DNA of 39,516 nucleotides from Fidelibacterota bacterium. GTDB lineage: Bacteria > Fidelibacterota > Marinisomatia > Marinisomatales > TCS55. The notes under the pieces were generated by a model. It was not told the DNA's origin. It saw only the letters and a list, made by a program, of their open reading frames with translations, and did not search any database. Location: contig JBHHTW010000019.1 in NCBI GenBank assembly GCA_046861385.1, forward strand, positions 1-39,516, written 5' to 3'. Of this stretch, positions 4,715-26,911 are shown one piece after another. The position numbers were made by a program, and so were the translations under genes. How positions within the stretch are numbered: position 1 is the stretch's first letter; every line of letters begins with the position of its first letter.

Positions 4715-4719
4715 ACATA

Positions 4720-7700: not shown

Positions 7701-8247
7701 TATTTTTCTAATCTTATACTTTCAGTTTAAAAGCGTATCAACAACAATGATAGTATTTAGCGGTATCTTTGTTGCATGGTCAGGAGGGTTTACTATGCTC
7801 TGGTTTTATGGCCAGGATTGGTTCATGAATTTTAGTATATTCGGAGAAAATATGCGGGATTTATTCCAGATGCATCCAGTGAATCTGAGTGTGGCTGTAT
7901 GGGTTGGCTTTTTAGCGTTATTTGGTATCGCCAGCGATAACGGTGTGATTATTAGCACCTATTTGGACCAAAGTTTTGAGCAGCGAAAACCAGGCACGAT
8001 AAAAGACATTCGTGAAGCTGTCATTTTAGCTGGTGAACGCAGAATCCGTCCGGCGATGATGACTGTTGCTACAACAATTTTAGCATTGATACCAATCCTC
8101 ATGTCCACTGGTCGTGGAGCAGATGTTATGGTACCCATGGCTATTCCATCCTTTGGGGGAATGGGTTTTGCGATTCTGACAACATTTGTAGTTCCGATAA
8201 TTTATTCATGGAAAAAGGAATACACTCTTATGAAAGGAGAGAAATAA
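4720..8247 (+). CDS. cusA: CusA-type Cu(I)/Ag(I) RND efflux permease
   Basis: VDAIPDIGENQ, GPDATALGQI, EFMPPLDEG, RIRPAMMT, MAIPSFGG; two TM clusters; 1175 aa. Confidence 0.93.
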   Translation: MNNLIQYCIDNKIVVGISLIAVIVWGLMVAPFDWSLGGLPRDPVPVDAIPDIGENQQIVFTKWSGRSPQDIEDQITYPMTTALLGIPDVKTIRSYSMFGFSSIYVIFNEDAEFYWSRSRILEKLSSLPARTLPQGVQPTLGPDATALGQIFWYTLEGQDKAGNPTGGWDLEELRSIQDWTVRYALQSAEGVAEVASIGGFVKEYQIDVDPVAMREHGIQLTDVFNAVRQSNLDVGARTVEINRVEYMVRGLGFIKSLEDIEYTVVKTWNNVPIYIKDIAHVALGPALRRGVLDKEGAEAVGGVVVARYGENPLATIKKVKDKIREVAPGLPKKTLSDGTLSQVTIVPFYDRTGLINETLNTLNHALRDEILITIIVILVMVMHFRTSILISGMLPLTVLMVFIGMKLFKVDANIVALSGIAIAIGTIVDMGIVVTENILKHLEKTKKKTKDVFFNAVSEVSGAVVTAVSTTIISFLPVFTMIGAEGKLFKPLAYTKTFALVSSIIIALTILPAIAHLLLGKNENRFKFEITIFKRFPWLGNGLVILMVICVLASTWSPLGLEKGFFLNLLFAVFLITLIMGGITGFTKIYPKMLRWTLDHKGKAMSLPVFLTVFGLVVWLGFDTFFRWTPNFIQSSRPYVAMKHVFPGFGKEFMPPLDEGSYLYMPTTMPHAGMEESIDVLQILDKALYSVPEVESVVGKIGRVDSPLDPAPLSMIETIVAYTPEYGLDENGDYVRQWRDHIRTADDIWDELVKVAQIPGTTSAPKLQPISARLVMLQSGMRAPMGIKVKGPDLPTIEAFGLEIEKHLKNVPGVRREMVFADRIVGKPYLEIDIDRKAIARYGIPLLKVQHAIEVAIGGMPITTTVEGRERYPVRVRYMRDYRSDMESLEQILIPGQGGVQIPLGQLSTANYVRGPQVIKSEDTFLVGYVLFDKQDGWAEVEVVEEAQSYLGELIESGALNVPAGVSFTFAGSYENQIRASKKLAVVLPLALVIIFLILYFQFKSVSTTMIVFSGIFVAWSGGFTMLWFYGQDWFMNFSIFGENMRDLFQMHPVNLSVAVWVGFLALFGIASDNGVIISTYLDQSFEQRKPGTIKDIREAVILAGERRIRPAMMTVATTILALIPILMSTGRGADVMVPMAIPSFGGMGFAILTTFVVPIIYSWKKEYTLMKGEK

Positions 8248-8513
8248 TGAAGACACTTTGGTTAGCATTCGGTATGATTTTTATTGCTGAACTTGGTGAT
8301 AAGACACAACTAGCAATTTTAGCTATGAAGTCAAAAGGAATGTCGGGAACAGGAATCTTTATTGGTTCGATGTTCGCATTTGCCATTCTCACCTTATTGG
8401 CAATATTTTTCGGTGATTGGTTGAATGCTAAAATTCCAACAGAAGTGATTAGTAAAATTGCAGCAGCAGGATTTGTATTTATTGGAGTGTTGATGTGGTT
8501 TGAGAAAATATAA
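8247..8513 (+). CDS. Half-size TMEM165/GDT1 (UPF0016) Mn2+/Ca2+ transporter family protein, 88 aa
   Basis: A single ELGDKTQ motif and three TM helices. The likely start is ATG 8247, overlapping the cusA stop (TAATG) and preceded by AAGGAG, rather than 8208. Confidence 0.85.
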   Translation: MKTLWLAFGMIFIAELGDKTQLAILAMKSKGMSGTGIFIGSMFAFAILTLLAIFFGDWLNAKIPTEVISKIAAAGFVFIGVLMWFEKI

Positions 8514-8551
8514 TGAGTTTCATTAAGAATGAATGAAATAAGGATAAAATT

Positions 8552-11050
8552 ATGGAATTAAAAGATCCTGTATGCGGGATGACCGTAACTGAAGAAACCG
8601 CAGTAGCTACTTTAGAAAGGGAAGGAGAAACGTATGGATTCTGTACTCAATACTGTCATGATTTGTTCGTCAAGCATCCGGAAGAATTTACAGAAGTGAA
8701 AACGGAAGTCGATTCACACGAACATCATCATCACAACCATGGCCAAAGCAGTCCTGCCCAAGAGAAAGATCCAGTTTGCGGAATGAACGTTGACCCTCAA
8801 CATGCAGCAGCAGAATCAGAATATAATGGGAAACACTATTATTTCTGCTGTTCCGGTTGTAAAACAAAATTTGATGCTGATCCTGAATCCTATTTGGGTG
8901 AGAAAAAATCTTCAATCCATAAGGAAGCAATGGTTGAAGGTGCAAATGTAAAATATACCTGTCCCATGCACCCGGAAGTCGTTAGCGATAAACTGGAGGA
9001 TTGCCCCATTTGCGGTATGGCGCTGGAGCCCATGGAAGTCACTCTTGATGATGAAGAAAACCCGGAACTGATTGATATGACCAAGCGATTTTGGGTCAGC
9101 GTTACCCTGGCTTTGCCACTACTCATCATTACCATGGGCGGAATGTTTATCGGAGGAATATTTGGTTTATGGCAGCCGTGGATTGAACTATTGTTGGCAA
9201 CTCCGGTAGTTTTATGGTGTGGAGCGCCCTTTTTCCAGCGGGGATGGAAATCGATTCAAACTCGAAATTTAAATATGTTTACCCTGATAGCCATTGGAAC
9301 AGGAGTGGCATTTAGCTATAGCGTAATAGGAACATTGTTTCCATTTATTTTCCCCGAAGCGCTGAAGGATACAAATGGAATGGTAGGTGTTTATTATGAA
9401 GCCGCCGCAGTCATCATTGCTCTGGTTTTGTTAGGTCAAGTCATGGAATTAAAAGCCCGGGATAAAACCAGCAGCGCTATCAAAGCTCTTTTGGGGTTGG
9501 CGCCGAAAACTGCCCGATTGGTTCATGATGACGGCAGGGAAGAAGATGTACCATTAGAGCATGTTCAAAAAGGATATATTCTTCGAGTGCGTCCTGGTGA
9601 AAAAATACCGGTTGACGGAGTGGTAATTGAAGGGCAGAGTTCCATTGATGAATCCATGGTGACGGGTGAGTCCATGCCGGTAGAAAAAAATGAAGGTGAT
9701 TCGGTTGTTGGCGCTACGGTGAACGGAACGGGAACACTTTTGATGAAAGCGGAGCGTGTTGGAAAAGAAACCCTGCTATCTCAAATCGTACAAATGGTTA
9801 ATGAAGCACAGCGGAGCCGTGCGCCCATTCAAAACCTGGCGGATAAAGTGGCATCCTATTTTGTACCGGCTGTGGTTGGAATCAGCGTGTTAACATTCGT
9901 TATCTGGGGGATATGGGGACCTGAACCTCGTTTTGCATATGCGCTGGTAAACATGGTCGCCGTATTGATTATCGCCTGTCCCTGCGCCTTGGGATTGGCA
10001 ACGCCCATGTCCATAATGGTGGGAACGGGCCGGGGTGCAACGGCCGGAGTTTTAATCAAAAATGCGGATGTGTTAGAAGCAATGGAAAAAGTGGATACTC
10101 TTGTAGTAGATAAAACCGGAACACTGACAGAAGGAAAGCCAAAAGTTGTCAGTATTCATTCTGTGGGAGCATTTAATGAAAATGAATTGTTAACACTGAC
10201 TGCCGCAGTGGAAAAAGCCAGTGAACATCCTTTGGCAGTTGCCATCGTTTCCCAGGCGCAAGAAAAAGAACTGAATTTGGATAATTGCGCTGATTTTATG
10301 TCTTACACAGGAAAAGGTGTAGAAGGGGTTGTTAGCGGGAAGAAAATATCAATCGGTAATCTTCAATGGATGAATGAGATGAATGTGGACTTTGGTGACC
10401 TGACAGAAATAGCGGCTACCTTGCAAAAAGAAGGCGAATCAGTCATGTTCGTTTCCATCGATACCAAGCCGGCTGGAATCATCGGAGTAGCTGACCCCAT
10501 AAAAGAATCAACGTATGATGCACTGGACGAATTAAGACGATCAAGACTTCATATTGTCATGCTAACCGGCGACAATAAAACAACGGCAAATGCTGTAGCC
10601 GGAAAATTACGTATTGAAGATGTGGAGGCTGAAGTTCTTCCTGACCATAAACATGAGGTCATTAAAAAATTGAAAAATGAAGGACGAATTGTCGCCATGG
10701 CTGGAGACGGGATTAACGATGCTCCGGCTTTAGCCCAAGCGGACGTAGGTATTGCCATGGGCACCGGAGCGGATGTTGCCATGGAAAGCGCCGGAATGAC
10801 ATTAATAAAAGGCGATTTATCCGGAATCATACGTGGAATACGATTGAGCAAAGCAACCATGAAAAATATTCGGCAAAATCTTTTCTGGGCTTTTGCTTAC
10901 AATTCTTTTGGAGTCCCAATTGCAGCTGGAATCCTCTATCCTTTCTTCGGTATTTTGTTAAGTCCTATCATTGCCGCCGCAGCCATGAGTTTCAGTTCGG
11001 TAACAGTCATTGGAAATGCATTGCGGTTACGAAATCTCTCGCTAGGATAG
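8552..11050 (+). CDS. copA: P1B-1 Cu(I)/Ag(I)-translocating P-type ATPase with two YHS domains, a His-rich linker and a CPMHP domain
   Basis: DPVCGM twice, [39 protein letters not shown] and MSFSS motifs. Confidence 0.95.
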
Positions 11051-11070
11051 AAAAAATAAGGATGAGAAAA

Positions 11071-11865
11071 ATGAACACTAAACCACAAAAATCTCTTAAA
11101 TCAGAAATTAATTTTGGAAATACGAAACCCTATTTATTATAGTTGCCGAACATGGTTGGAGGAATAGCTGTTTTAATTTCTCCCAATTATTACGACACGT
11201 CGACAACAGCTATTATGGCTTACGAAGTCCTGGCTGACGAATCGCAATGGAAAACTTCCGAACTTCAGGGTTCATATTCTTAACTGGACGTTGCAGCTGT
11301 AGATAATGATTTAACCTTATAAATCATTGTGGGTCTGAATGTCTACAATCAATCTGATTCCAGCTACTCCAGTGTTTTGTACATTATCGATGGAAATACC
11401 GGTAGTATGGAATGGGTAAGTCGTCCATTTCAAGGATATTTAATAGTTACTTATGTAGCAAACATTGATAATGATGAAAATAGAGAAATTGTATTGAACG
11501 TATATGTTAATAATAATGAGAGTTATTTTTTGAGTATGTGGTCATTTGATAATGGTACGAATCGTGTGGTTGGTTTAGAGGAATTCGGAATAATGGAACA
11601 ACTTCCCAGTTATCCGAATCCTTTTAATTCAAGTACAATTATTCCATTTATATTGAACGGAAATAGTTCAGTAGTAATTGATATTGTGAATCTGAATGGA
11701 CAACGTGTAAAACGATTGACTAATAAAAATTATCCTCAAGGAAAATTTCAGGTTAGATGGAACGGGAAAAATGATCAAAACCAGCATGTTTCCTGTGGCG
11801 TCTATATGGTTAGAATAATGATAAATAATATCATAAATGCACAACCGATTGTTTTAACAAAATGA
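11071..11865 (+). pseudogene. FG-GAP-like repeat protein with C-terminal FlgD-Ig/T9SS-type sorting domain; 5' part broken by three in-frame stops
   Basis: The frame of ORF 11329-11865 continues upstream through TAA 11320, TAA 11281 and TAG 11140. The upstream translation (QWKTSELQGSYS*LDVAAVDNDLTL*IIV) repeats the intact unit EWVSRPFQGYLIVTYVANIDNDENREIV. C-terminus has SYPNPFNSST..WNGKN..GVY. Confidence 0.7.
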
Positions 11866-12650
11866 TTCTAAATGTTGTCCTATCAATATTTTCCCTTTAT
11901 CCCTGGAATATAGGAGCAAGTTCGTTTTATACAGCTGGTGAATACTCAAATGGAAGCCAGTCTATATCAAAAACAGTCTTTTGGTCTATGGACGAACGGA
12001 AAAAAAATGGTTTTGTATTGGGCTATGAAGAATTGATTATTTCTTCAGATAACGGAGATTATGAACAATATAACCTTTTAACCAAGGATATGTTTTGGAT
12101 CAAAAAACAATTGAGATTGGGTGGATTGGCAGGCAGAATGACAAGTAATAATACTGATAACGGTTGGTTTTTAGGTGGTTTAGTAGAAGGTGATTTTAAA
12201 TGGTTCGGTTATTCCTTCGGCTTAATTCAATCGAATTTTCAGCAATGGCATTTATTTTCAAATCAGTTGGCAGAATGGGATAATGTAAATATTAAACAAT
12301 ATAGTGGTGTGATCAGCAGAAGAATCAGATCGATCACTATTTTTGCAGGGGCACAATACCAAGAATTTCAAGAGGAGACTTATATAACAAATAGTATCAG
12401 TTTATCGGGGTTTTTCTATGGGAAATTCGGGCTTACTGTAAGCGGCTCATTCGGCGAAAGTAGATATTCATTTGATCCGTATTTATTGATATTGAATAAT
12501 AATCCGGAGATATTGAAGAAAAATCTTTCCGCTAAATTATTGTACCGGATTAATCCCAACTGGTACATCCATGGTGCATTCGCCCTTCATGAATATGAAT
12601 ATGAACAATCCATTAACTATTCCAGTATTGGAATTCAATGCAGGTTTTAG
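11862..12650 (+). CDS. Hypothetical protein, probable outer-membrane beta-barrel
   Basis: Alternating aromatic/Gly strand pattern, C-terminal IGIQCRF, ATGA overlap with the upstream gene. Confidence 0.6.
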   Translation: MILNVVLSIFSLYPWNIGASSFYTAGEYSNGSQSISKTVFWSMDERKKNGFVLGYEELIISSDNGDYEQYNLLTKDMFWIKKQLRLGGLAGRMTSNNTDNGWFLGGLVEGDFKWFGYSFGLIQSNFQQWHLFSNQLAEWDNVNIKQYSGVISRRIRSITIFAGAQYQEFQEETYITNSISLSGFFYGKFGLTVSGSFGESRYSFDPYLLILNNNPEILKKNLSAKLLYRINPNWYIHGAFALHEYEYEQSINYSSIGIQCRF

Positions 12651-12653
12651 CGT

Positions 12654-13088
12654 ATGAAAAAACGAATTATTAATATATTTCTGGTGATATTCATCAGTTC
12701 CCTGACCGCTCAAAATAATGCGGTGATGAATGTGGATATTGTTATCAACGCAGATTATGGTTGGCCGACAAAAGTTATTGTCAACGGTACAACTCCTGAT
12801 GATGGGACATTTCTTGGGATATCTTTATATCCCTATAATGTGACGGACGCAGAAACTGGCGGTAGGCACAGTAATATGGAGCTGAAAAAAGGTTCGTTTC
12901 ATCATGAAATCACGATTGATCAGCCTCTTCTTGGAGGAAGTTTTGAATTTGCAGTGTGGGGTAAAAAAGTGGATAAGGTGGATTGTACATTGGATTATTG
13001 TTATTGGTGTAAATCAAACGGTTTTCATTTTGACGATTTACTCGTGTATAAATCGGGTTTATTGAATCAGATGAAGGGATATGAATAA
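12654..13088 (+). CDS. Secreted hypothetical protein with a CxxxxCxxC motif
   Basis: Signal peptide ending LTA-Q; DCTLDYCYWC near the C-terminus. Confidence 0.7.
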   Translation: MKKRIINIFLVIFISSLTAQNNAVMNVDIVINADYGWPTKVIVNGTTPDDGTFLGISLYPYNVTDAETGGRHSNMELKKGSFHHEITIDQPLLGGSFEFAVWGKKVDKVDCTLDYCYWCKSNGFHFDDLLVYKSGLLNQMKGYE

Positions 13089-13105
13089 ATATAAAAAGGA
13101 AACAT

Positions 13106-13351
13106 ATGGAAACATCATTTAAATCAGAATTAACACTGAGCGATACAGGTTTTTTATTTGATCATAATTCAGGGTTAACGTACACATTAAATCCGACGGG
13201 ACAATTTATTTTCAATGAGATTAAAAATGGAAAACAGGGTACAGACATACTGGTTTCACTTAGGAAAGGATTCGACATTGATGAAGACACAGCCCGAAAG
13301 GATATTGATGACTTTTTCCGGCAGTTGCATGAATTAGATCTGTTGTCCTGA
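13106..13351 (+). CDS. PqqD-family protein / standalone RiPP recognition element (RRE)
   Basis: 81 aa; GFLFD..G.TYTLNPTG..I...(helices)..DIDDF..QL...LL fits the PqqD three-strand, three-helix pattern. RBS AAGGA. Confidence 0.88.
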   Translation: METSFKSELTLSDTGFLFDHNSGLTYTLNPTGQFIFNEIKNGKQGTDILVSLRKGFDIDEDTARKDIDDFFRQLHELDLLS

Positions 13352-14397
13352 TGGGTATTAATGTTGCTATAACAGGCTTGCAGGCTACGGATAATCCAGC
13401 ACCTGGGATTGGAGTAATCCGCTGTTTGAAACACCCGGATGGTTGGGATGGAAAAATTATTGGATTAGCTTATGATGTTTATGATACCGGCATTTATGAC
13501 ACAGGACTATTAGACCACACCTTTTTAATCCCATACCCGAACCAGGGGAGCAAGCAGGTCCTTGAGCGATTATTATATATTCACTCGCAAGTTAGAATTG
13601 ATGTCATTTTCCCTAATCTGGATAGCGAACTGGCTCTTTATCAGAAGATAGAAAAAGAGTTGAATGAACATGGTATTAAGTTATTTATACCATCCAAAAA
13701 AGCCGTGCATTCCAGGACGAAAGCTAATTTAACAACCTTCTGTGAAGATGCAGATATCTTGACGCCAAAAACAGTTGTCATTCGGGAATCGGGTCAATTT
13801 TCGACTGCTGTTGAAGAAATTGGTTTACCCGTTATGGTAAAGGGAGTTTTTTACGACGCTGAAAAATGCAGAACTGTCAGTGAGGCTGAAACAGCATTTC
13901 AAAAAATGCGAGTTAAATGGGGAATGCCTATCATTCTCCAGGAAGTCATTAAAGGAGAAGAATTTGATGTCTGTTGTGTTGCTGGGAAAGAAAGTGAACT
14001 TCTTGGAGCAGTTGCCATACGTAAAACGGGGTTAACTGATAAAGGGAAAGCCTGGTCTGCTGTAACTATAAAAAATGATGAATTACATAATCTGTCTAAA
14101 AAAGTATTAAAAAAGATAAATTGGACTGGTCCATGTGAATTGGAATTCCTTCAGGAAAAGAGTACAAAAAAACTGTTTTTACTGGAGATCAATCCACGAT
14201 TCCCGGCATGGATTTATGTATGTACCGGTGCGGATCAAAATTTACCGAAACTCATTGTGGATTTAGCATTTGGTCACACTGTAAAGTCACTCCCAAGAGC
14301 AAAATCAGGTGTTATTTTTGTACGCCACGCTACTGACCTGGTATGTTCGCTGGACTATTTAGAGCATTTAACTATCAGCGGAGAATTACATTATTAA
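13351..14397 (+). CDS. ATP-grasp carboxylate-amine ligase
   Basis: PVMVKG, ILQEVIKGEEF, GPCELEF, LLEINPRFPAW; TGATG overlap with the PqqD gene. Confidence 0.9.
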   Translation: MGINVAITGLQATDNPAPGIGVIRCLKHPDGWDGKIIGLAYDVYDTGIYDTGLLDHTFLIPYPNQGSKQVLERLLYIHSQVRIDVIFPNLDSELALYQKIEKELNEHGIKLFIPSKKAVHSRTKANLTTFCEDADILTPKTVVIRESGQFSTAVEEIGLPVMVKGVFYDAEKCRTVSEAETAFQKMRVKWGMPIILQEVIKGEEFDVCCVAGKESELLGAVAIRKTGLTDKGKAWSAVTIKNDELHNLSKKVLKKINWTGPCELEFLQEKSTKKLFLLEINPRFPAWIYVCTGADQNLPKLIVDLAFGHTVKSLPRAKSGVIFVRHATDLVCSLDYLEHLTISGELHY

Positions 14398-14418
14398 CTT
14401 AGAATTATTGGAGAAATA

Positions 14419-15765
14419 ATGAGGGAAAAAAAACCATATAGTAAACCAACCATTGTTCGTCATAGTGTAGGCGTACTGAACAAATTTGGTCGCCCGCCGG
14501 CGACAATTCCATTAAAAAGAATTGACGGATTTAATGTTGATGAACTTGTAAGCCAATACGGGTCACCGCTCTTTGTTCTGTCTGTACAAGCCCTTCGCGA
14601 CCATTATAAAAATTTGGATAGGGCATTTAAAACACGATATCCTAATTTTCAAATTGCATATTCATACAAAACAAATTACCTGAAATCTGTTTGCTCGATT
14701 CTACATCAGGAAGGAGCGTGGGCAGAGGTAGTATCAGGGTTTGAATATGATATTGCCCGGAATCTTGATAATCCAGGAAATAAAATTGTATTTAATGGTC
14801 CTTATAAGACTCGTGATGAGTTAATTCGTGCTTTTAAGGATGGTGCAATGGTCAACATTGATAATTTTGATGAGATGCAGTTAATTGAAGATATTGCCGA
14901 TGAAATGGGCAAATCATTGGAAATTGGCATCAGGATAAATATGGATTTAAATGATCCACCCTGGCATAAATTTGGATTTAATGTTGAGTCCGGTCAGGCT
15001 TTTGCTGCTGTTAAAAGGGCTCAAGCCGATAGCAAACTTCACGTCGTGGGATTACACTTGCACACCGGGACTTACATAGACGATGTTTCCATTTACTCCC
15101 GTGCAGCACAGGGGTTAGTTCATTTTTATACTGCTATTAAAGAACAGCTTAATGTTTCGTTGAAATATTGGGATATGGGAGGAGGTTACGCGTCACATAA
15201 CACATTACACTCTGCTTATCTTCCAGCTGAACAAACGTGTCCAACGTTTGATCAGTATGCTGAAGCTATTTGTCCAATACTCTTATCAGGACCGTTTCAA
15301 GCCGCAGATGCTCCGTTATTATTGATCGAACCGGGACGCTCTCTTGTTGATGAACCCTTTTCGCTTATAACATCTGTTGTTGCTCAAAAACGGTTACCGT
15401 CGGGACAAAGGGGGATAGTTTTAGATGCGGGGATGAATATTATGTCTTCCGTGCAATGGTATAGATACAATTTTCAATTAGCCCAGGATGCAGGACAGAT
15501 GTTGGAAGATACCGTCGTTTATGGTGGACTCTGCATGAATATTGATGTGCTGCAGCAATCCACATCCATTCCTCCCGTCCGCAGGGGAGATATATTAGTG
15601 ATTCCCCAAGTGGGTGCATATAATATTAGCCAAAGTTGGCAGTTTATTTATCTTCGTCCTTCGATTATTGCCGTTGAAGAAGGAAAAATTCATGTTATTA
15701 AGAGGGCGGAAGAACGCGAATATGTGCAGCAGTTTGAACACGTTCCGGATGAATTCAAGGCATAA
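14419..15765 (+). CDS. Fold-type III PLP-dependent decarboxylase (LysA/ODC-like), substrate unknown
   Basis: YSYKTN (PLP Lys), EVVSGFE, FNGPYK, HLHTG, DMGGG, EPGRS, GLCMNID, GAY. Confidence 0.88.
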   Translation: MREKKPYSKPTIVRHSVGVLNKFGRPPATIPLKRIDGFNVDELVSQYGSPLFVLSVQALRDHYKNLDRAFKTRYPNFQIAYSYKTNYLKSVCSILHQEGAWAEVVSGFEYDIARNLDNPGNKIVFNGPYKTRDELIRAFKDGAMVNIDNFDEMQLIEDIADEMGKSLEIGIRINMDLNDPPWHKFGFNVESGQAFAAVKRAQADSKLHVVGLHLHTGTYIDDVSIYSRAAQGLVHFYTAIKEQLNVSLKYWDMGGGYASHNTLHSAYLPAEQTCPTFDQYAEAICPILLSGPFQAADAPLLLIEPGRSLVDEPFSLITSVVAQKRLPSGQRGIVLDAGMNIMSSVQWYRYNFQLAQDAGQMLEDTVVYGGLCMNIDVLQQSTSIPPVRRGDILVIPQVGAYNISQSWQFIYLRPSIIAVEEGKIHVIKRAEEREYVQQFEHVPDEFKA

Positions 15766-15813
15766 ACGGTTGTCTAATAAAATTTGAATTATTACGATTA
15801 TACCAAAACAAAG

Positions 15814-15865
15814 GTACTGCAGACATTCTTGTCTGCAGTTGTACAGGCAGGAATGTCTGTACTAC
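15814..15865. repeat. Head-to-head REP-like doublet with a GTAG foot
   Basis: ACTGCAGACA-TTCT-TGTCTGCAGT (15816-15839) followed by GTACAGGCA-GGAA-TGTCTGTAC-TAC. The right copy read on the - strand starts GTAG and matches the left copy at 19/25 positions. Confidence 0.7.
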
Positions 15866-15961
15866 AGAACGGACTTAATTAATGAAATTACTAATACTAA
15901 TATTTCCATTCGCTTGTCCTCTTTCAGTATTAAGTCTGTATTTCTTGGGATTTCCTCTATT

Positions 15962-18010
15962 TTGAATACATTGCGAACATATTTAAGAATCATTATTTTA
16001 TCTTACGGCAATTTAATTTTTGCCTCTCATCCATTCCCCGCACTACTTGTTTTAACAGCAACATTTTTCCACCCAGTCGTCGGTGTCATGGGATTAATCG
16101 GAAACATTGTTTCTAATCTGGTTGCAAAATGGATGCATGCCAATAATGATGTGTGGAAAACAGGTATTTATGGTGTAAGTGGTGTTCTAATCGGTTTGGC
16201 ATTGGGGATGTATGCAGAACCAAGTATAAGGTTGTGGGTATTCTTGATTGTAGGCGCTGCCTTTTCTGGGGTGATTTCTGTTATGCTGGGAAATATCTTT
16301 GCCCGGTTTGATCTTCCAATCATCAGCATTCCATTTATGCTAGTTATTTGGATTTTACTGTTGACAATTGGAATCGCAAAAGGTGACTCGACTTCGTTCC
16401 ATGCTATAACATTTTTAAGAAAGATTGACCTTTGGTTGTTCGATCAACTTCCTCTGGCAGTATTTGAATATATCAAGATGTTTGGAAGCATTATATTCCA
16501 GGAAAACCTTCTTTCCGGTTTGCTGGTTTTGATTGCTATTAGTATTTATAGCCGCATATCAATGTTGTACGGATTGTGGGGTGGATTTCTCGGGATGATC
16601 ATTTACAGTTTTATTCATGGTTCACTGGATGGATATCATGGATTAAACTTTGTTCTGATAGCATTAGCATTTGGCGGATTTTTTATTGTCCAGAATAAAC
16701 ATGCGTTTCTATTTGTTTCATTAGCTGTTGTCGCAGTTGGATTTGTCGATGAAGGAACTGTTAAACTACTTAAAGCAATATCTATGAATCTAAATGGCGA
16801 AATACCCTCATTGGTTTTTGCGTTTAACATTATAACAATTATTTTCCTCCTCCCGCTGAAATTATTACCAAGTTCACCGCAGACATTTCGTTTAAATGCT
16901 GTACCATTGTATTTGATTAAAAGCCCGGAAACTAACTTAAAATGGTATCGTCGATGGACCGGTATTAAAACCCGGCAGAGAACGATTTTGACATTTCCGT
17001 TTAATGGTGAATGGATCGTTTTACAGGGGAATAATGGTGAGTGGACCCATAAAGGAGATGGACGTTTCGCATGGGATTTTGTTGTTAAAGATGAGAAAGA
17101 TCTTCAAGCACAAGGGACGGGACTTTCTGTAACAGATTTTTATGCGTTTGGTTTACCGGTCTTGGCGCCTGCCCCCGGAACGATTGTTGCCGTTGAAAAT
17201 ATGGTGGTGGACAATCCGCCCGGTGAAGCAACAACTGAACGTAATTGGGGTAATTATGTTATTATCAATCATGGTTTTAGCGAATATTCAGAAATGAGTC
17301 ATTTTCGCCAAGGGAGCATTACAGTTCTCCCTGGGCAGGTCGTCCAAAGAGGTGATATCATTGGTTATTGTGGAAATTCCGGACGGTCGCCAGTACCACA
17401 CATTCATTTTCAACTGCAAAATACACCAATATTAGGATCGAGTACGATTCCATCAGTGTTTGCAGAAGGCTTAATAAGTGGCAGGATTTCTACGAATTTC
17501 ATTCCTGAGAAAAATGATAAAGTAGAAGCTTTATCGTTGAAAAGTGAGAATAAATTCAATCTCCTGGGAAAGGAAGGTTCACAATATACTTATAATGTTA
17601 AAAAAGGATGGATGCAATTCAAGGAAACGTTGCGATATGGTACAGATGCATATGGAACACCGGCCATTTTATCCGATAATAATTTATTGTGGTATTTAAT
17701 TGAAAAGCCTTCATTTATTGAGATTCGACCTGATTTTAAAACAATACCATCCAGATTAATTCTATCCGGATTTATTGATATTGTGGGCGACAGCCTTATT
17801 CTTCCAAAATTTCTTCAGGATGGTTTTGAATGGGATAATGGAAAAGTATATTTCAAAAATAATAATTGGTTTGTTAAGACAGAAGGAAAAGTGTTAATGG
17901 TAAATCAAGGGGATGGTATTGTTGATGTGACTATGAAATCAGATCCAAAATTTTATTTTAAATTAGAGAGTAAAAACAACCGGTCTAAAAATTTTAATAA
18001 TATTTTATAA
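15962..18010 (+). CDS. Urea-transporter-family membrane domain fused to an M23 metallopeptidase-like domain
   Basis: About ten TM segments with SYGNLIF / FGSIIFQ repeats, GIYG, LPIISIPF; then HKGDGRFAWDF, APAPG, WGNYVII, GNSGRSPVPHIH. The start is uncertain: the track's TTG 15839 lies in the REP, so TTG 15962 or 15971 is more plausible. Confidence 0.8.
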   Translation: MNTLRTYLRIIILSYGNLIFASHPFPALLVLTATFFHPVVGVMGLIGNIVSNLVAKWMHANNDVWKTGIYGVSGVLIGLALGMYAEPSIRLWVFLIVGAAFSGVISVMLGNIFARFDLPIISIPFMLVIWILLLTIGIAKGDSTSFHAITFLRKIDLWLFDQLPLAVFEYIKMFGSIIFQENLLSGLLVLIAISIYSRISMLYGLWGGFLGMIIYSFIHGSLDGYHGLNFVLIALAFGGFFIVQNKHAFLFVSLAVVAVGFVDEGTVKLLKAISMNLNGEIPSLVFAFNIITIIFLLPLKLLPSSPQTFRLNAVPLYLIKSPETNLKWYRRWTGIKTRQRTILTFPFNGEWIVLQGNNGEWTHKGDGRFAWDFVVKDEKDLQAQGTGLSVTDFYAFGLPVLAPAPGTIVAVENMVVDNPPGEATTERNWGNYVIINHGFSEYSEMSHFRQGSITVLPGQVVQRGDIIGYCGNSGRSPVPHIHFQLQNTPILGSSTIPSVFAEGLISGRISTNFIPEKNDKVEALSLKSENKFNLLGKEGSQYTYNVKKGWMQFKETLRYGTDAYGTPAILSDNNLLWYLIEKPSFIEIRPDFKTIPSRLILSGFIDIVGDSLILPKFLQDGFEWDNGKVYFKNNNWFVKTEGKVLMVNQGDGIVDVTMKSDPKFYFKLESKNNRSKNFNNIL

Positions 18011-18064
18011 AATTTGGAAACAATTTATACTATTTGGGTTATATTAGTAATCAGAAAATAATTC

Positions 18065-18469
18065 ATGATGAGTAACCGAATTACAAAAACGATTCACCGG
18101 CATATTGGATGGCTCTTCTGCTTAGCATTGATAAGTCAAAACGTAGTTGAGTCGCCAGTCCTATGCTTTGAATCAGATGGCCATATTAATTTAGAATCTG
18201 ACTGTGATCATACGTGTATAGAACCGACACAGAACAATGATGAACATATAGATGATTGTAGAAATTGTGTTGATATTTCATTTTGGAATTACAATCCAGA
18301 TTTATCTTTTCTTGTAAGGTCAATAATTTTTGATTATGATATGTATGAAAGCAATCAAGAATTATTTTCCCAGGAACTTGTTCTTGCTCTACCCTACGTT
18401 TTTCAGCCATCGGAAAACCCCCACAACCATTTCCCGTCCTTTTTAAAGAATACTGCATTATTGATTTAG
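18065..18469 (+). CDS. Exported Cys/His-rich leader protein of the czc operon; putative metal-sensing translational regulator
   Basis: Hydrophobic N-terminus, VLCFESDGH, CDHTC, H..DCRNCVD, C-terminus LKNTALLI. First gene before czcCBA. Confidence 0.65.
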   Translation: MMSNRITKTIHRHIGWLFCLALISQNVVESPVLCFESDGHINLESDCDHTCIEPTQNNDEHIDDCRNCVDISFWNYNPDLSFLVRSIIFDYDMYESNQELFSQELVLALPYVFQPSENPHNHFPSFLKNTALLI

Positions 18470-18470
18470 A

Positions 18471-18545
18471 TACCCTTTCTGAATTCTGATTAGCCATCGG
18501 TTTTAAAAGAAACCGATATTTTTCAAACAATTATTAGAAAGGGTA
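18471..18545 (+). promoter_or_regulatory. Anti-Shine-Dalgarno stem occluding the czcC ribosome-binding site
   Basis: TACCCTTTCT (18471-18480) is the exact reverse complement of AGAAAGGGTA (18536-18545), which ends 3 nt before ATG 18549. Inner hairpin ATCGGTTT/AAACCGAT (18496-18517). Confidence 0.75.
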
Positions 18546-18548
18546 ATA

Positions 18549-19742
18549 ATGCAAATTATCTTCCGGTACATAATCTGTACCATACTTTCATCTCTGGCGT
18601 TTAGCCAGCAATTAGATATAACCTTGCTTAAGAAATTAGTGGTTGAAGGAAACCCAGATCTCTTGGCAAGTGAGAAACAGATTGATGTTAATGTTAGTCA
18701 GTTAGAGCAAACCAAGAGGTTGCCAAATCCTGTAATGGAGTTTGAATCTGGAAAGGGTGTTGAACCTGAAACTGTTGGTATGCTTTCTCAAACGATTCTC
18801 CTTGGAGGAAAAAGAAAACAGAGAATCAAATTAACCAGTCTTGAATTGAACAAGGCAAGATTAGAATACGAAGTTTTTAGAAGATCAATACTGACAAAAG
18901 CATTCAGTGAATTTGTTGTCATTCTATATTTACAGGAGAATAAAATACTCCAAAAAGACCGCATTGCTGTTGCAAGAGATCTACTGGATGCTGTGAGTAG
19001 AAAAGTAGAAGCCGGGAAACTATCACCAGCGGAAAAATCTCGTGCGCGGATACAACTAATTCAAGAGCAAATAAAATTACGATCAATTGAAAAATCATTG
19101 AAAAATTCGTGGAATTCAATTTCTGCACTATGGGGAAAGGGAGAAATATCATATAATTATGCCTCAGGCAGTTTATCACAGATGGGAGCATTTTCTACAT
19201 CTATTTCATTAGCCAATGTGCCGGAGGTCCAGATTTCCAAATTATCATTGGAAATACAACAAACGAAAGTTCTTTCCGAAAAAGCAAATGTGATACCAGA
19301 TATTGACTTGGGTGCGGGATTAAAACTGGGTGAAACTCCCGGTAATACCTATCAGGTTGGGTTATCAATTCCCCTTCCAATTTTCGACAGGAACAAAGGG
19401 AATATTAAAAGTGCGCTTTCTGAAGTGGAGAAAGCACAACTGGAATTAAAGGCAACAGAATTAGAGATAAAAACCAACGTCTCTAACCTTCAATCTGAGT
19501 TGGAAATATTGGTTTCAGAAATAGAAATCTTGAATAATGATATTATTCCTGAAGCTCAAAATGCATATACTACAATAACCGAAGGCTATTTGAACGGTCG
19601 ATTTACATATTTAGATGTTGTTGATTCACGGGAAATGTGGTTTCAATCCAGAGAACAATATTTAGGAGCATTGAAGGAATACCATCAAAACATTTTTGAA
19701 TTAGACCGGATAACGGGAAAATACCCAACATTCAATTTTTAG
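18549..19742 (+). CDS. czcC: CzcC-like TolC-family outer-membrane factor
   Basis: LPNP, LGGKRKQR, AGKLSPAE, LSIPLPIFDRNKGNI, GY..GRFTYLDVVD. Confidence 0.88.
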   Translation: MQIIFRYIICTILSSLAFSQQLDITLLKKLVVEGNPDLLASEKQIDVNVSQLEQTKRLPNPVMEFESGKGVEPETVGMLSQTILLGGKRKQRIKLTSLELNKARLEYEVFRRSILTKAFSEFVVILYLQENKILQKDRIAVARDLLDAVSRKVEAGKLSPAEKSRARIQLIQEQIKLRSIEKSLKNSWNSISALWGKGEISYNYASGSLSQMGAFSTSISLANVPEVQISKLSLEIQQTKVLSEKANVIPDIDLGAGLKLGETPGNTYQVGLSIPLPIFDRNKGNIKSALSEVEKAQLELKATELEIKTNVSNLQSELEILVSEIEILNNDIIPEAQNAYTTITEGYLNGRFTYLDVVDSREMWFQSREQYLGALKEYHQNIFELDRITGKYPTFNF

Positions 19743-19756
19743 GAGAAAAACGAATC

Positions 19757-20725
19757 ATGAAAAAAACAATTATCAGTACAGTAATTATTACTGCAATAAT
19801 AACATTCACTATAACCAAATATTTTATTTTACCCCAGAAAGACACCCATCATGATGAGGTGGGCCATAACGAGGAGCTGGATGATCATGAAGGCGAATCT
19901 GGATTAGAACTGGATTTAACACCGGAAGTACTAAAAGAATTTGGTATTGTCCTGGGAACTGTTTCGGATGGTGTTTTGGAAAGAATCGTTGAATTACCAG
20001 GTGAAATTCAGATAGACCCGGACCGTTTGGCACACATTACACCACGATTCGAAGGTGTAGTAAAGAAAGTTTTTAAACAAATTGGCGAAAGGGTGGAAAA
20101 GGATGAATTGCTGGCGATAATTGAAAGTAACGAAAGTCTTACTGCCTATGAAGTTCGATCGGAGATTGCAGGTACTGTGATCGAAATGCATCTCACGACG
20201 GGAGAGACAATCAGCGATTCTGACCATGGTTTTATTGTTGCTGATCTTAGTGAAGTATGGGCGAATTTAAGCGTTTACCAAAAAGATCTTCCCTTTATTC
20301 GAATGGGACAAAAAACCACGATTATTGTCAGTTCAGAATTACCGGAAGTTTCCGGAACTATCTCTTATATAAGTCCAATTCTGGATGAACACACACGAAC
20401 GGCTAATGCACGAGTCATTATTCAAAATGAAGATGGATATTTTCTTCCAGGACAGTTCGTAACTGGGCGGGTTGTTACAGAAGAAGAAACCATTTCATTA
20501 TTAGTTCCAAAAACTGCTCTCCAGACCATTAATAATCAGACAGTTGTATTTGTTAAGGATGAGCATGGTTTTGAACCACAACTTGTGCATGTGGGAAGGG
20601 CTAATGAAAAAAGTGTAGAAATCCTCTCAGGGCTTGACTCGGGGCAGAAGTACGTCTCAAAAGGAGGATTTACTCTTAAAGCTCAATTGGCAAAAAGTTC
20701 ATTCGGTGATGGACATAGTCATTAG
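19757..20725 (+). CDS. czcB: CzcB-like RND periplasmic adaptor
   Basis: N-terminal TM plus His/Asp-rich stretch, ADLSEVW, TRTA.AR, LPGQFV, C-terminal GHSH. Confidence 0.88.
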   Translation: MKKTIISTVIITAIITFTITKYFILPQKDTHHDEVGHNEELDDHEGESGLELDLTPEVLKEFGIVLGTVSDGVLERIVELPGEIQIDPDRLAHITPRFEGVVKKVFKQIGERVEKDELLAIIESNESLTAYEVRSEIAGTVIEMHLTTGETISDSDHGFIVADLSEVWANLSVYQKDLPFIRMGQKTTIIVSSELPEVSGTISYISPILDEHTRTANARVIIQNEDGYFLPGQFVTGRVVTEEETISLLVPKTALQTINNQTVVFVKDEHGFEPQLVHVGRANEKSVEILSGLDSGQKYVSKGGFTLKAQLAKSSFGDGHSH

Positions 20726-20788
20726 TGAATATTTAGATCCAAAATAAGGTTCTTGTACACATAAATTTTTAAAAAGGAAAAATTTACA

Positions 20789-23700
20789 ATGGAAAAATTA
20801 ATTCAATCCATTCTACGTAATCGTTTACTAATGGTGGCAGTTGCTGCACTGGTAATGGGAATGGGGATTTACAGTTATAAGCAATTGCCAATTGACGCAT
20901 TCCCAGATGTTTCACCAGTATTGGTACAAGTTTTTACGGAAACAGAAGGACTGGCTCCGGAAGAGGTAGAAAAATATGTAACCTACCCTGTGGAGGTCGC
21001 CATGAATGGACTTCCTGATCTAAAGAAAATTCGTTCTGTATCAAACTTTGGATTATCCGTAGTCAATATATATTTTCATGACGGTACTGATATATATTTC
21101 GCACGGCAACTGGTCAACGAAAGAATTCAGGAAGCACGGGAACAAATACCAGAGGGCTTTGGCGAACCGGTCATGGGTCCAATTTCAACGGGAATGGGTT
21201 TGATTCTTTTTTATTATCTCGAGGATGAAACGGGTGAATACACTCTTGAGGAATTGCGTACTATCCAAGATTGGTTAGTAAAATTTCATCTTCAAACAGT
21301 ACCGGGTGTTACTGAGGTCCTGGGGATTGGTGGATTCGAAAAACAGTTCCAGATTGTACTGGATCCATACGCTTTGTTGCGATACGACATTTCCGTCCAG
21401 GATGTGATTGAAAAAATAAAAGCAAATAATCTGAATGTTGGTGCTCAGTTTATTGAAAAAAATGCCGAGGAATTTATTGTTCGGTCTGTCGGGTTAGCTT
21501 CACATATTGAAGACATCGAGAATATTGTGATTAAATCTGATTCCGGAACGCCGATTTTTCTTAAACAACTAGCAGATGTAGAAATCGGAGGTGCTATCCG
21601 GAGGGGAATTCAAACGCGTAACGGTGTTGGAGAAGTGGTTGCTGGGATGGTCGTGAAATTGTATGGAACAAACTCTTCTACCGTGATAGGTCAGGTGGAA
21701 TCCAAAATGGAGGAAATAAATACAATTTTACCTGACGGGATTAAACTGATTCCATATTACGAACAAAAAACGTTAGTTGAAGCCTGTGTTAAGACGGTCA
21801 CAGACGCTTTGTTTGAAGGGATCATTCTTGTAATGATTATTCTGATGGTGTTTCTTGGTGCATTCAGACCCAGTATTGTTGTGGCTACAGCTATTCCATT
21901 TTCAGTCTTATTTGCAATTATCGGTATGAAATTATTTGGAATCTCTGCAAATCTCATGTCATTTGGTGGATTAGCAATCGCTATCGGAATGTTGGTAGAT
22001 GGAAGTGTCGTTATTGTTGAAAATGTCGATCGAATGTTAAGGTCTGCAAACAATCATGAACCACAGATTCATATTATTTCCCGGGCTTGTAGAGAAGTTA
22101 TTCGTCCAGTTTTATTTGCAATAATTATCATTATCCTTGTGTTTTTACCATTGTTTACTTTACAAGGCGTTGAAGGGAAAACCTTCAGACCGCTGGCATA
22201 TACTATCGCCCTGGCAATGTTTGGCTCCCTTATTTTTACAGTATTTCTTGCACCTGTTTTATCTTCATTTTTTATGAGAAAACCAAAAAGTACACCATCC
22301 GGTTCAGAGCATGAAGATGTTTGGATACTACGTCATATGCTAAAGTTATATCGCCCTGTTGTTACATTTTTTGTTAAGCGTAGACATATGGCTGTTTCGA
22401 TGGTTTTGCTTCTTGTTGCAATCGGGGTAATGGTATTTCCACGTCTTGGATCAGAATTTACACCAACTCTACAAGAAGGTACGATCGTCGTACGTTTGAC
22501 CATGGCACCATCAATTTCACTCAATGAAAGCAGGCGGATCACGATGATTGTGGAACGTAGATTGGTGAAAATTCCAGAAGTTACCGGTGTGGTTACACGA
22601 ATAGGACGCGGAGAAGTGGGAGCACATACAGATCCAATTAACAGTGCCGAAATGTATGTTCTATTGAAACCAAAAGAAGAATGGCGGATGGCGGAAAATC
22701 AGGTTGAACTTGAAGCAACGATTCGAAAAGAATTGGGTAATATTCCAGGTGTGCTAACTAATTTTACTCAACCCATTGCAATGACAGTCGACGAACTACT
22801 GGAAGGCATCAGAGCAGAACTGGCTATCAAGTTATTTGGTGATGACCTCGAAATCTTAAAAAGTAAAGCAGATGAAATCGCAGGTGTAATTCGTAAAATC
22901 CAGGGAGCGGAAGATGTGCAGGTGGATCAGGTCTCTGGTACACCACAGTTGTTAATAAAAGTTGACAGACACGCAATTGCCAGGTACGGAATTAATATTG
23001 CAGATGTTCAGGAAGTGATACGTGCTGCAGTTGGAGGAGAAACTGCCGGGCAGATATTTGAAGGTATTCGGCGGTTTGATATTCTTGTTCGTTTTACACC
23101 GGAATACCGAAACACACCTGATGCCATTGGAAAGATTCTCGTCCAATCTCCTGATGGAACAAACATTCCATTATCAGAACTGGCGGATATCGATGAAGTG
23201 GTTGGTCCCAGACAGATTACACGGGAAAATAACCAACGTTTTATTACTGTTCAGTGTAATGTAACCGGACGGGATATCAGTTCCTTTGTGACGGAAGGAC
23301 AACAGGCACTCGAATCTCAGGTTGTACTACCTACAGGATATCTCAGCACTTGGGGTGGACAATTCAAATTACAGCAAGAAGCAAACAAAAGGCTTTCAGT
23401 CGTGATTCCAATTACGTTGCTGATTATTTTCTTTTTACTATTTTCAAATTTCAACTCGTTAAAGAATTCGCTATTAATACTGTTGAATATTCCGTTAGCA
23501 CTTGTAGGTGGTGTTGTGAGTCTCTGGCTTAGTGGACAAAATATGTCGGTTCCTGCCTCAGTTGGATTTATAGCCCTTTTTGGTATCGCCTTATTAAATG
23601 GAATCGTCCTTGTCTCTTATTTAAACCAACTCTATCAAGAGGGCTTATCCATTGATGACGTTTCTATTAAAGGTGCTTGTTTAAGATTACGACCCGTATT

Positions 23701-23887: not shown

Positions 23888-23902
23888 AAAAAGGAGAAGC
23901 TA

Positions 23903-24244
23903 ATGAAATTCATTCAAGCATATATCAAACCGCACAAATTGGTTGACGTTACATTATCTCTTCATAATGTAGATCGCTTAACAGGGATGAGTGTGATAGA
24001 AATAAAAGGATTTGGACGCGGGAAAGCTAAAAACTCACCTCATAGGATTAAAGATGAATTAATCGATTTCATTCACCATATAAAACTGGAAATATTCTGT
24101 CTGGACGAAATAGTTGATCAAATCATTGCTAAAATCCAAAAAGCCGCTCATACAGGATTAAGAGGGGATGGTAAAATCTATGTGACTGATGTTGATGAAG
24201 CTGTTCGTATCAGCACGGGCGAATATGGTAAAGAAGCTGTTTAA
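23903..24244 (+). CDS. PII-like protein associated with heavy-metal efflux
   Basis: IKPHKL, GMSV..IKGFGR, KLEI, AHTG..GDGKIYV, RISTGE. The T-loop lacks the YRG..Y uridylylation motif of GlnB/GlnK. Confidence 0.88.
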   Translation: MKFIQAYIKPHKLVDVTLSLHNVDRLTGMSVIEIKGFGRGKAKNSPHRIKDELIDFIHHIKLEIFCLDEIVDQIIAKIQKAAHTGLRGDGKIYVTDVDEAVRISTGEYGKEAV

Positions 24245-24315
24245 ATCTGTATTGAAATTCGTAACGACCATCCACCGACTGTTGGATAGAGGACAGGAGT
24301 TCAGTAATATTAATT

Positions 24316-26807: not shown

Positions 26808-26911
26808 TTTGTATCTTGGAAGGTTCTGAATCTCGAATATCTGATAAATAGTATTTCTATTCTTTTAGTCAACATTTTAAATGTGGAACAATTTGCTTAT
26901 TGGTAATTATA

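Follow-up and report, generated by a model that had tools for sequence, protein, structure and literature searches.

RiPP recognition elements (RREs; RiPP, a peptide made by ribosomes and then modified post-translationally) serve as a class-independent flag of RiPP gene clusters, and their ligand is assumed to be a short precursor peptide. The B1 proteins of lasso peptide pathways, represented by TbiB1-TbiA (Protein Data Bank codes 5v1u and 5v1v), TfuB1-TfuA (6jx3), and PbaB1-PbaA (9x90), are stand-alone RREs of ~80-90 residues with the PqqD fold. The motif of the lasso leader consists of Tyr at -17, Pro at -14, and Leu at -12 (PMC10368454). Discrete RREs bind the pattern [Y/W]xxPx[L/V/I/F/A], which sits in a cleft split by a conserved Phe, and a lysine 2-3 residues ahead of the motif aromatic anchors the backbone; deprived of their peptide, discrete RREs can turn out insoluble (PMC13381572). 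In the LPP RiPP family, where LppB binds the YxxP leader of LppA (9x8z), a discrete RRE of this YxxP-reading kind serves in a pathway other than a lasso one and works alongside a different peptidase (PMC13381572). The window analyzed here is a stretch of 39,516 nucleotides from a Fidelibacterota bacterium (assembly GCA_046861385.1, contig JBHHTW010000019.1, positions 1 to 39,516). It contains a cassette that encodes a discrete PqqD-family RRE, stand-alone like the lasso B1 proteins, followed by an ATP-grasp ligase, a decarboxylase with an N-terminal tail, and a urea-transporter-like protein fused to an M23 peptidase domain, after which relatives of the cassette often have a secreted tetratricopeptide repeat (TPR) protein. 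We propose, with moderate confidence, that the tail of the decarboxylase is the ligand of the RRE. The argument is an indirect one, drawn from the motif in the tail, the predicted disorder of the tail, the pockets of the RRE, gene linkage, and a model of the complex.

The decarboxylase gene occupies positions 14419..15765 of the forward strand, with a GGAG sequence ~8 bases 5' of the ATG, and its open reading frame (ORF) encodes 448 residues. The enzyme body is that of a fold-type III pyridoxal 5'-phosphate (PLP) decarboxylase of the LysA/FslC kind. It matches the Pfam families Orn_Arg_deC_N (119.9 bits) and Orn_DAP_Arg_deC (39.4 bits), both above cutoff. The nearest solved relative is FslC (7kh2; 3.6e-57), which is also the top fold match (TM 0.82/0.89), followed among solved structures by archaeal and bacterial LysA and then by BtrK (chains 7ru7 and 2j66; ~6e-21). 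The score of the window enzyme is under the LysA equivalog cutoff (TIGR01048; 235.2 versus 297.9) and far under that of FslC (NF041039; 229.9 versus 500). Residue K84 in SYKTN, which from the family signature we take to be the PLP lysine, is invariant in a 50-sequence alignment of the decarboxylase family, as are C372 and other residues of the catalytic region.

The alignment to Orn_Arg_deC_N begins at residue 68, whereas the NCBIfam models lysA and FslC first align at residue 35 (model position 11) and residue 36 (model position 15), respectively. Because both of these models start so late, the enzyme has ~24 extra residues relative to the LysA and FslC families. A preliminary description of this DNA had noted an extension ahead of the LysA-like fold, and the extension is real: the 24 residues MREKKPYSKPTIVRHSVGVLNKFG (14419..14490, + strand) are the ones given there, and they form a tail that is specific to this family and predicted to be disordered.

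Within the tail, Y7-S-K-P10-T-I12 (14437..14454, + strand) is a leader-type [Y/W/F]xxPx[I/L/V] motif. Residues Y7, P10, and I12 have the spacing of the lasso leader motif as given in PMC10368454, and K4 and K5 precede them. A second conserved block, G18-x-x-N21-K22-F23-G24, lies at 14470..14490 on the same strand. By a rough estimate, one random 24-residue stretch in 100 would match [YW]xxPx[LIV].

Conservation of the motif was assessed in two sets of relatives. A 5.8-billion-protein collection was searched for homologues, and of the 7999 candidates scored, 6283 were relatives. From the 120 best of these (48-94% identity), 8 that were N-terminally incomplete or could not be anchored were dropped, which left 112. 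A scan of GTDB with one genome per species matched at least 600 stretches, at least 588 of which encode relatives; the analysis used the best 80 loci. In these 80 loci and the window, a family that spans 42-94% identity, [YWF]xxPx[LIVFAM] occurs at a single alignment column in 81/81 sequences. The tail is therefore a family trait rather than a chance match, and the refuting outcome named in the preliminary description, a YxxP not conserved among homologs, did not occur. The motif is at the homologous place in 111 of the 112 complete homologues, the exception being P0114, in which an R replaces the P. A check by eye confirmed its presence in loci L036, L014, and L061. Of the 78 motifs parsed, 69 begin with Y, 6 with W, and 3 with F. 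The 50-sequence decarboxylase alignment, which extends down to 42% identity and has a mean column identity of 61%, shows no variation at P10, G18, K22, and G24 and conservation of at least 90% at K4, Y7, I12, and N21.

An AlphaFold2 model of the decarboxylase monomer, calculated from a 29-sequence alignment, has a mean predicted local distance difference test (pLDDT) value of 88.3 and a predicted TM score (pTM) of 0.85. Values below 50 occur at residues 1-6 and 8-23 and in no other segment of the enzyme. If the model is right, the tail combines strong conservation with a lack of structure, as is usual for short linear motifs that a partner recognizes. Across the four core proteins of the cassette, the tail is the sole conserved instance of the motif that lies outside a folded core or a membrane helix. 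Three other matches to the pattern, W190 of the ATP-grasp protein (77/77), F437 of the M23 domain (53/63), and Y47 of the decarboxylase (62/81), were considered as RRE ligands and rejected; they are situated inside regions to which a domain model aligns or which are folded with confidence.

The proposed receptor of the tail is the discrete PqqD-family RRE of 81 residues encoded at 13106..13351 (+ strand). It matches Pfam PqqD over residues 17-80 (47.4 bits, 2.5e-12; gathering cutoff 23.4), and its top NCBIfam match is a lasso PqqD model, at a score below the cutoff (41.8 versus 70). When a 50-member profile of the PqqD protein was compared with solved structures, the matches were TbiB1 (3e-13), TfuB1 (1.1e-10), PbaB1 (2.2e-5), LppB (3.2e-3), and true PqqD (7.4e-3). 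The AlphaFold2 model of the protein (pLDDT 89.3) has strands at residues 9-11, 16-19, and 24-27 and helices at residues 30-40, 45-56, and 60-76. This three-stranded sheet followed by three helices is the winged helix-turn-helix fold of the RRE family. A Foldseek search with the model gave six matches at E<=0.001, all of them leader-bound crystal chains of TbiB1 or TfuB1 (TM 0.74-0.85).

The residues that contact the leader are described for LppB. Tyr(-16) of the leader is placed amid V35, C39, I56, Y60, V63, and V67 and is hydrogen-bonded to D70, N33 fixes the kink at the leader Pro, and the pocket for the branched residue consists of T30, L32, F74, M78, and L83 (PMC13381572). In the ungapped HMMER alignment to LppB chain 9x8z_B, residues N29, I35, F56, D66, F70, L74, and L79 of the window protein align to N33, C39, Y60, D70, F74, M78, and L83. 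Four of these (N29, I35, F70, and L74) are among the five nearly invariant positions of the PqqD family, and position 66 is Asp in 67/74 members. Judged by its sequence, the PqqD protein is a lasso-type discrete RRE in which the residues of the leader-binding pocket are conserved.

The RRE and the decarboxylase travel together. The PqqD gene is present in 71/72 and the ATP-grasp gene in 72/72 loci whose sequence extends 1500 nt or more upstream of the decarboxylase, and a urea-transporter protein is present in 68/69 loci with at least 1200 nt downstream, L016 being the one without it. The PqqD and ATP-grasp ORFs overlap in 43/73 loci, with a median gap of -4 nt, which fits co-translation of two subunits. 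In the window, the PqqD and ATP-grasp genes overlap by 1 nt, a gap of 21 nt separates the ATP-grasp gene from the decarboxylase gene, and the gap from there to the transporter gene is at most 73 nt; upstream, 17 nt lie between the PqqD gene and the preceding gene, p144.

In the mechanism that we favor, the tail stretch K-K-x-Y-x-K-P-x-I would act as an enzyme-borne leader, bound by the PqqD protein encoded two genes upstream. The tail would add to the RRE as a β-strand and place its Tyr and Ile in two hydrophobic pockets, the binding mode of the lasso B1 proteins with the YxxPxL motif of their precursors. The bound pair would recruit the decarboxylase into an assembly of RRE, ATP-grasp ligase, and decarboxylase, or would switch such an assembly on. 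Recruitment or activation appears the most likely role because the RRE and ATP-grasp genes are translationally coupled; if the tail is bound, we would give this role roughly half of the weight, and processing of the tail or regulation the remainder. Starting from an amino acid, the assembly would produce a decarboxylated compound of the amide type, which would exit through the urea-transporter-like protein that bears the M23 peptidase domain. The binding of the tail, its role in assembly or activation, and all that concerns the product are inferred.

The complex of the RRE (50-row alignment) with residues 1-36 of the decarboxylase (50-row alignment) was predicted in three runs, along with three controls. 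All three runs scored 0.48 and the best control scored 0.09. The mark against which these scores are read is reached by 116 of 157 solved complexes and by 2 of 215 mismatched pairs; 18 of the 157 solved complexes, and both mismatches, score at the mark but not above 0.60. The three runs share at least 81% of their contacts, and the partner pLDDT is at least 54. The predicted complex of PqqD with the tail, a model of the kind that the preliminary description had called for, therefore passes the mark and stands above the controls, but weakly so.

The pairing of residues across the proposed interface was compared at motif residue 1 and RRE position 66. Among 74 pairs, there are 63 Y-D, 2 Y-N, 4 W-D, 2 W-E, and 3 F-S combinations. 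The three tails with Phe (L024, L027, and L048) all have Ser at position 66 of the RRE, and no other locus does. Phe has no hydroxyl to bond, and its pairing with Ser instead of Asp agrees with the expectation for a direct contact, an observation of anecdotal weight.

A separate precursor peptide was sought both near the cassette and in sequence libraries. No short gene fits between the cassette genes, and the ORFs of at least 20 residues that lie within or near them are overlapping out-of-frame or antisense ones. An all-against-all BLASTP comparison of 5172 ORFs of 18-130 residues within 3 kb revealed no conserved small-ORF family fixed beside the cassette; the largest family, present in 17/81 loci, is a mix of opposite-strand and low-complexity sequences situated mostly downstream of the cassette. 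The earlier remark that the cluster lacks a convincing short precursor ORF agrees with both the ORF listing and the 3-kb clustering. A profile of the tail only (42 sequences) gave 171 matches at E<=0.001 against 1.84 billion representatives. Among the best 150 of the 171, 91 also match the profile of the decarboxylase body, 44 continue into the first strand of the decarboxylase (the I-D-G element) before ending or diverging, 9 stop within 20 residues of the motif, and 6, which are mutually unrelated singletons, diverge directly after the tail. A word-index search of short proteins with residues 1-40 returned one 100-aa fragment from an 885-bp contig only. Many of the short matches to the tail profile are chimeras or fragments from contig ends; several of them (P0125, P0129, P0145, P0258, and others) consist of a decarboxylase N terminus joined to an unrelated low-complexity end and are assembly or read artefacts. 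With such chimeric fragments in the representative library, short matches there are not to be taken as peptides. To judge from the sequences of the representatives and loci searched, the tail is found solely on this decarboxylase.

A second explanation, which we regard as unlikely though well short of negligible, is that the RRE reads something else, for example a precursor peptide encoded at an unlinked site. The tail would then be an intrinsic part of the decarboxylase, such as a lid on the active site or an arm that reaches the dimer partner, and its YxxPxI would be a mere resemblance. This does not fit easily with a pocket-intact lasso-type RRE beside the enzyme in 71/72 loci and no peptide gene at a conserved position, with no stand-alone motif peptide among the 1.84 billion representatives, or with a tail that agrees with the published RRE motif in its residues, spacing, and preceding lysines (PMC10368454, PMC13381572). 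AlphaFold2 also leaves the tail undocked on the enzyme; the model is of a monomer, however, and gives no view of a tail lying across the obligate dimer.

Several observations weigh against the tail as the RRE ligand, and part of them would be accommodated by this second explanation. The search for a peptide gene in the neighborhood reached ~8 kb on each side of the decarboxylase, so a precursor could be encoded farther off. In a mutual-information scan of the 74 pairs, a shallow depth, tail-RRE columns were not enriched in the top 1% (1.07%, versus 1.01% for body-RRE columns). Locus L006 (Planctomycetota) has an intact tail and no PqqD gene within 8 kb upstream, on a contig that ends 73 nt past the decarboxylase; in the usual place of PqqD, just upstream of the ATP-grasp gene, it has genes for two p144-like proteins with three Cys-rich units each (493 aa, 3976-5457, and 422 aa, 5491-6759). 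The check suggested in the preliminary description, whether YxxP is conserved only beside a PqqD gene, cannot discriminate between the explanations because tail and PqqD are both near-universal (81/81 and 71/72), L006 being the sole one of the 80 loci without PqqD upstream. The invariant G18..NKFG half of the tail is left unexplained by RRE contacts, and the motif is retained in fused enzymes, as described below. The window PqqD protein is under the curated cutoffs of both lasso models (lasso_PqqD_Strm, 41.8 versus 70; lasso_PqqD_Bac, 23.1 versus 80). The score of the predicted RRE-tail complex falls in the weak band, and since lasso RRE-leader complexes are solved, its pass may mirror likeness to known structures. 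The F-S pairing is probably one evolutionary event because L024, L027, and L048 are close relatives, and the W-E pairing probably reflects a single event likewise. On balance, the proposal that the tail is the RRE ligand, already made in the preliminary description, is supported indirectly by the conserved motif, the predicted disorder of the tail, the lasso-B1-like pockets, and the lack of a rival peptide in the searches above, and weakly by the complex model.

Two fusions of the ATP-grasp ligase with the decarboxylase were found in a search of longer proteins, P0122 (836 aa, 45% identity) and P0123 (854 aa, 42% identity). The linkers between the two enzymes keep both W-x-x-P-x-[L/I] and G-x-x-N-K-F-G. 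If the tail only tied the decarboxylase to the ligase, fusion should make it dispensable, so the retention of motif and NKFG in these proteins indicates that a plain tether is not the whole function. The preliminary description had suggested that the RRE scaffolds a ligase-decarboxylase complex, and the part of that suggestion that is weakened is simple bridging; its other suggestion, presentation of the enzyme itself for modification, may hold. Something else also appears to read the tail, because G18..NKFG matches YxxP in conservation and yet corresponds to none of the RRE contacts that PMC13381572 describes. Either the RRE-bound tail does more, for example by activating the ATP-grasp ligase as leader binding does in some RiPP enzymes, or a second reader takes NKFG.

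The gene at 15839..18010 (+ strand) encodes a urea-transporter-like membrane domain (UT, 6.6e-46) fused to an M23 metallopeptidase domain (Peptidase_M23, 4.1e-15), and we refer to the product as UT-M23. The N-termini of relatives suggest that its true start is probably ~40 codons downstream of 15839. In its second half, where motifs of active enzymes including H-x-H are kept, the M23 domain aligns with solved M23 enzymes, and the ~190 residues after the domain have no family match. Urea transporters have both ends in the cytoplasm, and nine Lys or Arg residues are present in the 45 residues that follow the last membrane helix of UT-M23. The basic linker, together with this topology, suggests that the M23 domain (soluble part 16859-18007) faces the cytoplasm. 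A cytoplasmic M23 domain would be unusual, the family being known for cutting peptidoglycan. The gap between the decarboxylase and UT-M23 genes holds a perfect 10-bp inverted repeat whose loop has 4 bases (15816-15839); taken over all of 11000-18700, the promoter and terminator scan did not exceed chance, its counts being at or under shuffled expectation (27 versus 30.6 and 4 versus 5.2).

Four loci (L008, L011, L016, and L018) have two tandem ATP-grasp genes and a PqqD protein with an N-terminal extension of ~40 residues. In L008, L011, and L018 the urea-transporter protein is without the M23 domain, and L016 has no such protein. The tails of these two-ATP-grasp loci keep YxxP, and the G..NKFG block is altered (e.g. 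...ATNKY...).

These features bear on a third explanation, in which the RRE binds the tail so that the tail can be processed. The ATP-grasp ligase would acylate a tail residue, K22 being the obvious nucleophile, the decarboxylase would act on the tethered group, and the M23 domain would cut the tail or free the product; a variant is that a clip of the tail activates the enzyme. We consider this explanation improbable. It follows RiPP logic, in which a leader is bound by an RRE and modification takes place at a fixed distance downstream. With Y7 set as position -17 of a lasso leader (PMC10368454), the invariant K22 falls at -2 and the invariant G24 at +1, where a lasso core starts with Gly. Lasso precursors have Thr, rarely Ile or Val, at -2 (PMC10368454), however, and the tail has K22 there; a lasso core also has an acidic residue at about position 8 to close the ring (PMC10368454), while residues 30-32 of the decarboxylase (core positions 7-9) are I, P, and L. 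Neither a lasso B2 leader protease nor an Asn-synthetase-like cyclase was found among the cassette genes of the window or the conserved neighbor families of 80 loci. Processing is also favored by BtrK (7ru7, 2j66), a LysA-family decarboxylase named as acting on a carrier-tethered glutamyl group, by the survival of the motif in the fused forms, by the K/R-rich linker that suggests a cytoplasm-facing peptidase domain, and by the way this domain comes with the cassette (with a urea-transporter protein in 68/69 loci, of which the two-ATP-grasp variants are without M23). Those same four loci without M23 keep YxxP and have G..NKFG altered, which counts against processing, as does the waste of one enzyme molecule per product. 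By its family matches, moreover, the ATP-grasp protein is not of the graspetide kind.

A more specific version would make the RRE and the tail a domesticated RiPP leader/RRE pair, the leader having been fused to a pathway enzyme. As a built-in scaffold, the tail would be held by the RRE at Y7-I12 so as to present K22-F23-G24, the ATP-grasp ligase would build an amino-acyl group on K22, the decarboxylase would trim it, acting in cis or across the dimer, and the cytoplasm-facing M23 domain would release the small product for export. A small molecule would thus be made on the tail of an enzyme of its own pathway. In this version K22-F23-G24 would sit where a lasso leader meets its core, and the cassette has spread over a dozen or more phyla. 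We give it a slim chance.

A regulatory role of the contact is suggested by two loci in which the PqqD domain forms the C-terminal part of a TetR-like protein of ~265 residues (L028, 5996-6802; L065, 287-1075). The TetR_N match reaches 27.6 bits in one of the proteins, compared with a cutoff of 24, and 19 bits in the other. As the two proteins are 37% identical over 232 residues, the TetR-PqqD fusion is a real family, and it hints at regulatory use of the RRE. The PqqD protein could then sense or sequester the decarboxylase, or a free peptide, and so set enzyme activity or operon expression. Such fusions occur in only 2 of 73 PqqD-bearing loci, and elsewhere PqqD is a bare domain of 78-95 residues translationally coupled to the ATP-grasp ligase, which suggests a stoichiometric subunit. 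Regulation as the purpose of the contact therefore seems very improbable to us, and recruitment or activation of the RRE/ATP-grasp/decarboxylase assembly by the tail is the role that we prefer.

If an enzyme tail is indeed the ligand of a lasso-type RRE, genome mining with RREs flags clusters that make no ribosomal peptide, and recognition of a leader by an RRE is a general device to assemble enzyme complexes or to switch them. This tail marks a large family of decarboxylases that occurs together with such an RRE. The best 80 loci come from Neomarinimicrobiota, Bacteroidota, Ignavibacteriota, Planctomycetota, Myxococcota, Omnitrophota, Aquificota (Thermovibrio), Spirochaetota, Actinomycetota, several Pseudomonadota, and others; one of them, L057, belongs to a cultured bacterium, Pedobacter sp. 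GSP4. Because at least 588 GTDB species representatives from many phyla have the cassette, its product likely belongs to ordinary physiology rather than being a rare antibiotic.

The cassette is without a curated family name in Pfam, NCBIfam, and PADLOC, and its four core proteins all stay short of the curated NCBIfam cutoffs. A defence-system function was considered and set aside, with no PADLOC match for six cassette proteins. In a literature search that did not extend to subscription journals and recent papers, no description emerged of this cassette or of an RRE with an enzyme terminus as its ligand.

The ATP-grasp ligase (348 aa; 13351..14397, + strand), whose start overlaps the PqqD stop, is of the carbamoyl-phosphate synthetase (CPS)-like/ATPgrasp_Ter kind. 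Its matches are limited to the CPS-like PRK12767 and ATPgrasp_Ter models, all under curated equivalog cutoffs, and a look-up in the ESM Atlas returned unnamed ATP-grasp clusters only. A graspetide-type ATP-grasp is not supported by the family matches, and no precursor gene was found near the cassette.

Upstream of the RRE gene are p144 (12654..13088, + strand), which encodes a secreted, Cys-rich protein with a signal peptide, and p262 (11862..12650, + strand), whose product ends in an aromatic residue; neither has a family match. The p144 gene lies upstream of PqqD in L001-L005, L007, L014, and L036 and is an accessory gene of this clade and a few others, and p262 homologues are present upstream in L001-L004 and L007. 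The p262 protein may be an outer-membrane barrel, which we offer as inference only. Directly upstream of p262, a small protein encoded at 11329-11865 carries the C-terminal type IX secretion sorting domain TIGR04183 (27.2 bits versus a cutoff of 23), in keeping with a source in the FCB group or Marinimicrobia. Downstream of the cassette, the secreted TPR protein is present in 52 loci, and proteins of 270-400 residues with a signal peptide and no family match occur in 12-27 loci; examples of these downstream genes, at 2-5 kb from the decarboxylase, are in L050 (11595-12224), L032 (11603-12817), and L023 (12181-12993). Some loci have barrel-like proteins of no known family downstream. The secreted downstream proteins suggest that the system reaches into the cell envelope.

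In the window, the cassette is situated inside a metal-resistance island that covers 1485-11050 and 18549-28008. The island holds two sets of OEP, CusB-like, and resistance-nodulation-division (RND) efflux proteins (1485-8247 and 18549-23887), a P-type ATPase with a His-rich N terminus (8552-11050), a cation diffusion facilitator (CDF) exporter (24316-25200), a MerT-like protein (26951-27535), and a CopZ-type zinc-finger protein (27532-28008). The link with metal resistance may be local to this clade because the RND pump neighbor family is present in only 4/81 loci.

Several described systems share part of this arrangement. The butirosin side-chain enzymes BtrI, BtrJ, and BtrK likewise combine an ATP-grasp ligase with a PLP decarboxylase of the LysA family and a small partner. 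That partner is an acyl carrier protein, whereas in the cassette it is an RRE, and the window decarboxylase is less similar to BtrK than to FslC or LysA. We know of no tail motif in the butirosin enzymes. FslC, the N-citrylornithine decarboxylase of rhizoferrin synthesis, decarboxylates an amino acid that is already amide-joined to another acid. It is without the 24-residue tail, and its partner is a nonribosomal peptide synthetase-independent siderophore (NIS) synthetase rather than an ATP-grasp ligase with an RRE.

Peptidase-containing ATP-binding cassette transporters (PCATs) are membrane exporters fused to a peptidase domain. UT-M23 may resemble them as an exporter with a probably cytoplasmic peptidase, although the transporter and peptidase families differ, and a urea-type channel would be too narrow for peptides unless it has diverged. 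Lanthipeptide engineering has joined a leader to an enzyme of the pathway, which keeps the machinery that depends on the leader engaged at all times. Those fusions are artificial, and the enzyme that bears the leader is itself the one activated; the cassette has a natural fusion, with a separate RRE as the proposed receptor.

The LPP family differs from the cassette in that its short precursor is matured by cleavage, in Bacillota, with a signal-peptidase-like partner (PMC13381572), and the match of LppB to the window RRE is weak (3.2e-3). The position of the Asp-Tyr hydrogen bond, D70 in LppB (PMC13381572), has its equivalent in D66 of the window RRE. Lasso clusters have a B2 protease, an Asn-synthetase-like cyclase, and an ABC (ATP-binding cassette) exporter, and the cassette is without them. 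Like the lasso leaders, the tail has a Tyr with Pro at +3, Leu or Ile at +5, and lysines ahead, and the pocket positions of its putative receptor are conserved. Lasso precursors, in contrast, are short and separately encoded, whereas the motif of the window rides on a 448-residue enzyme.

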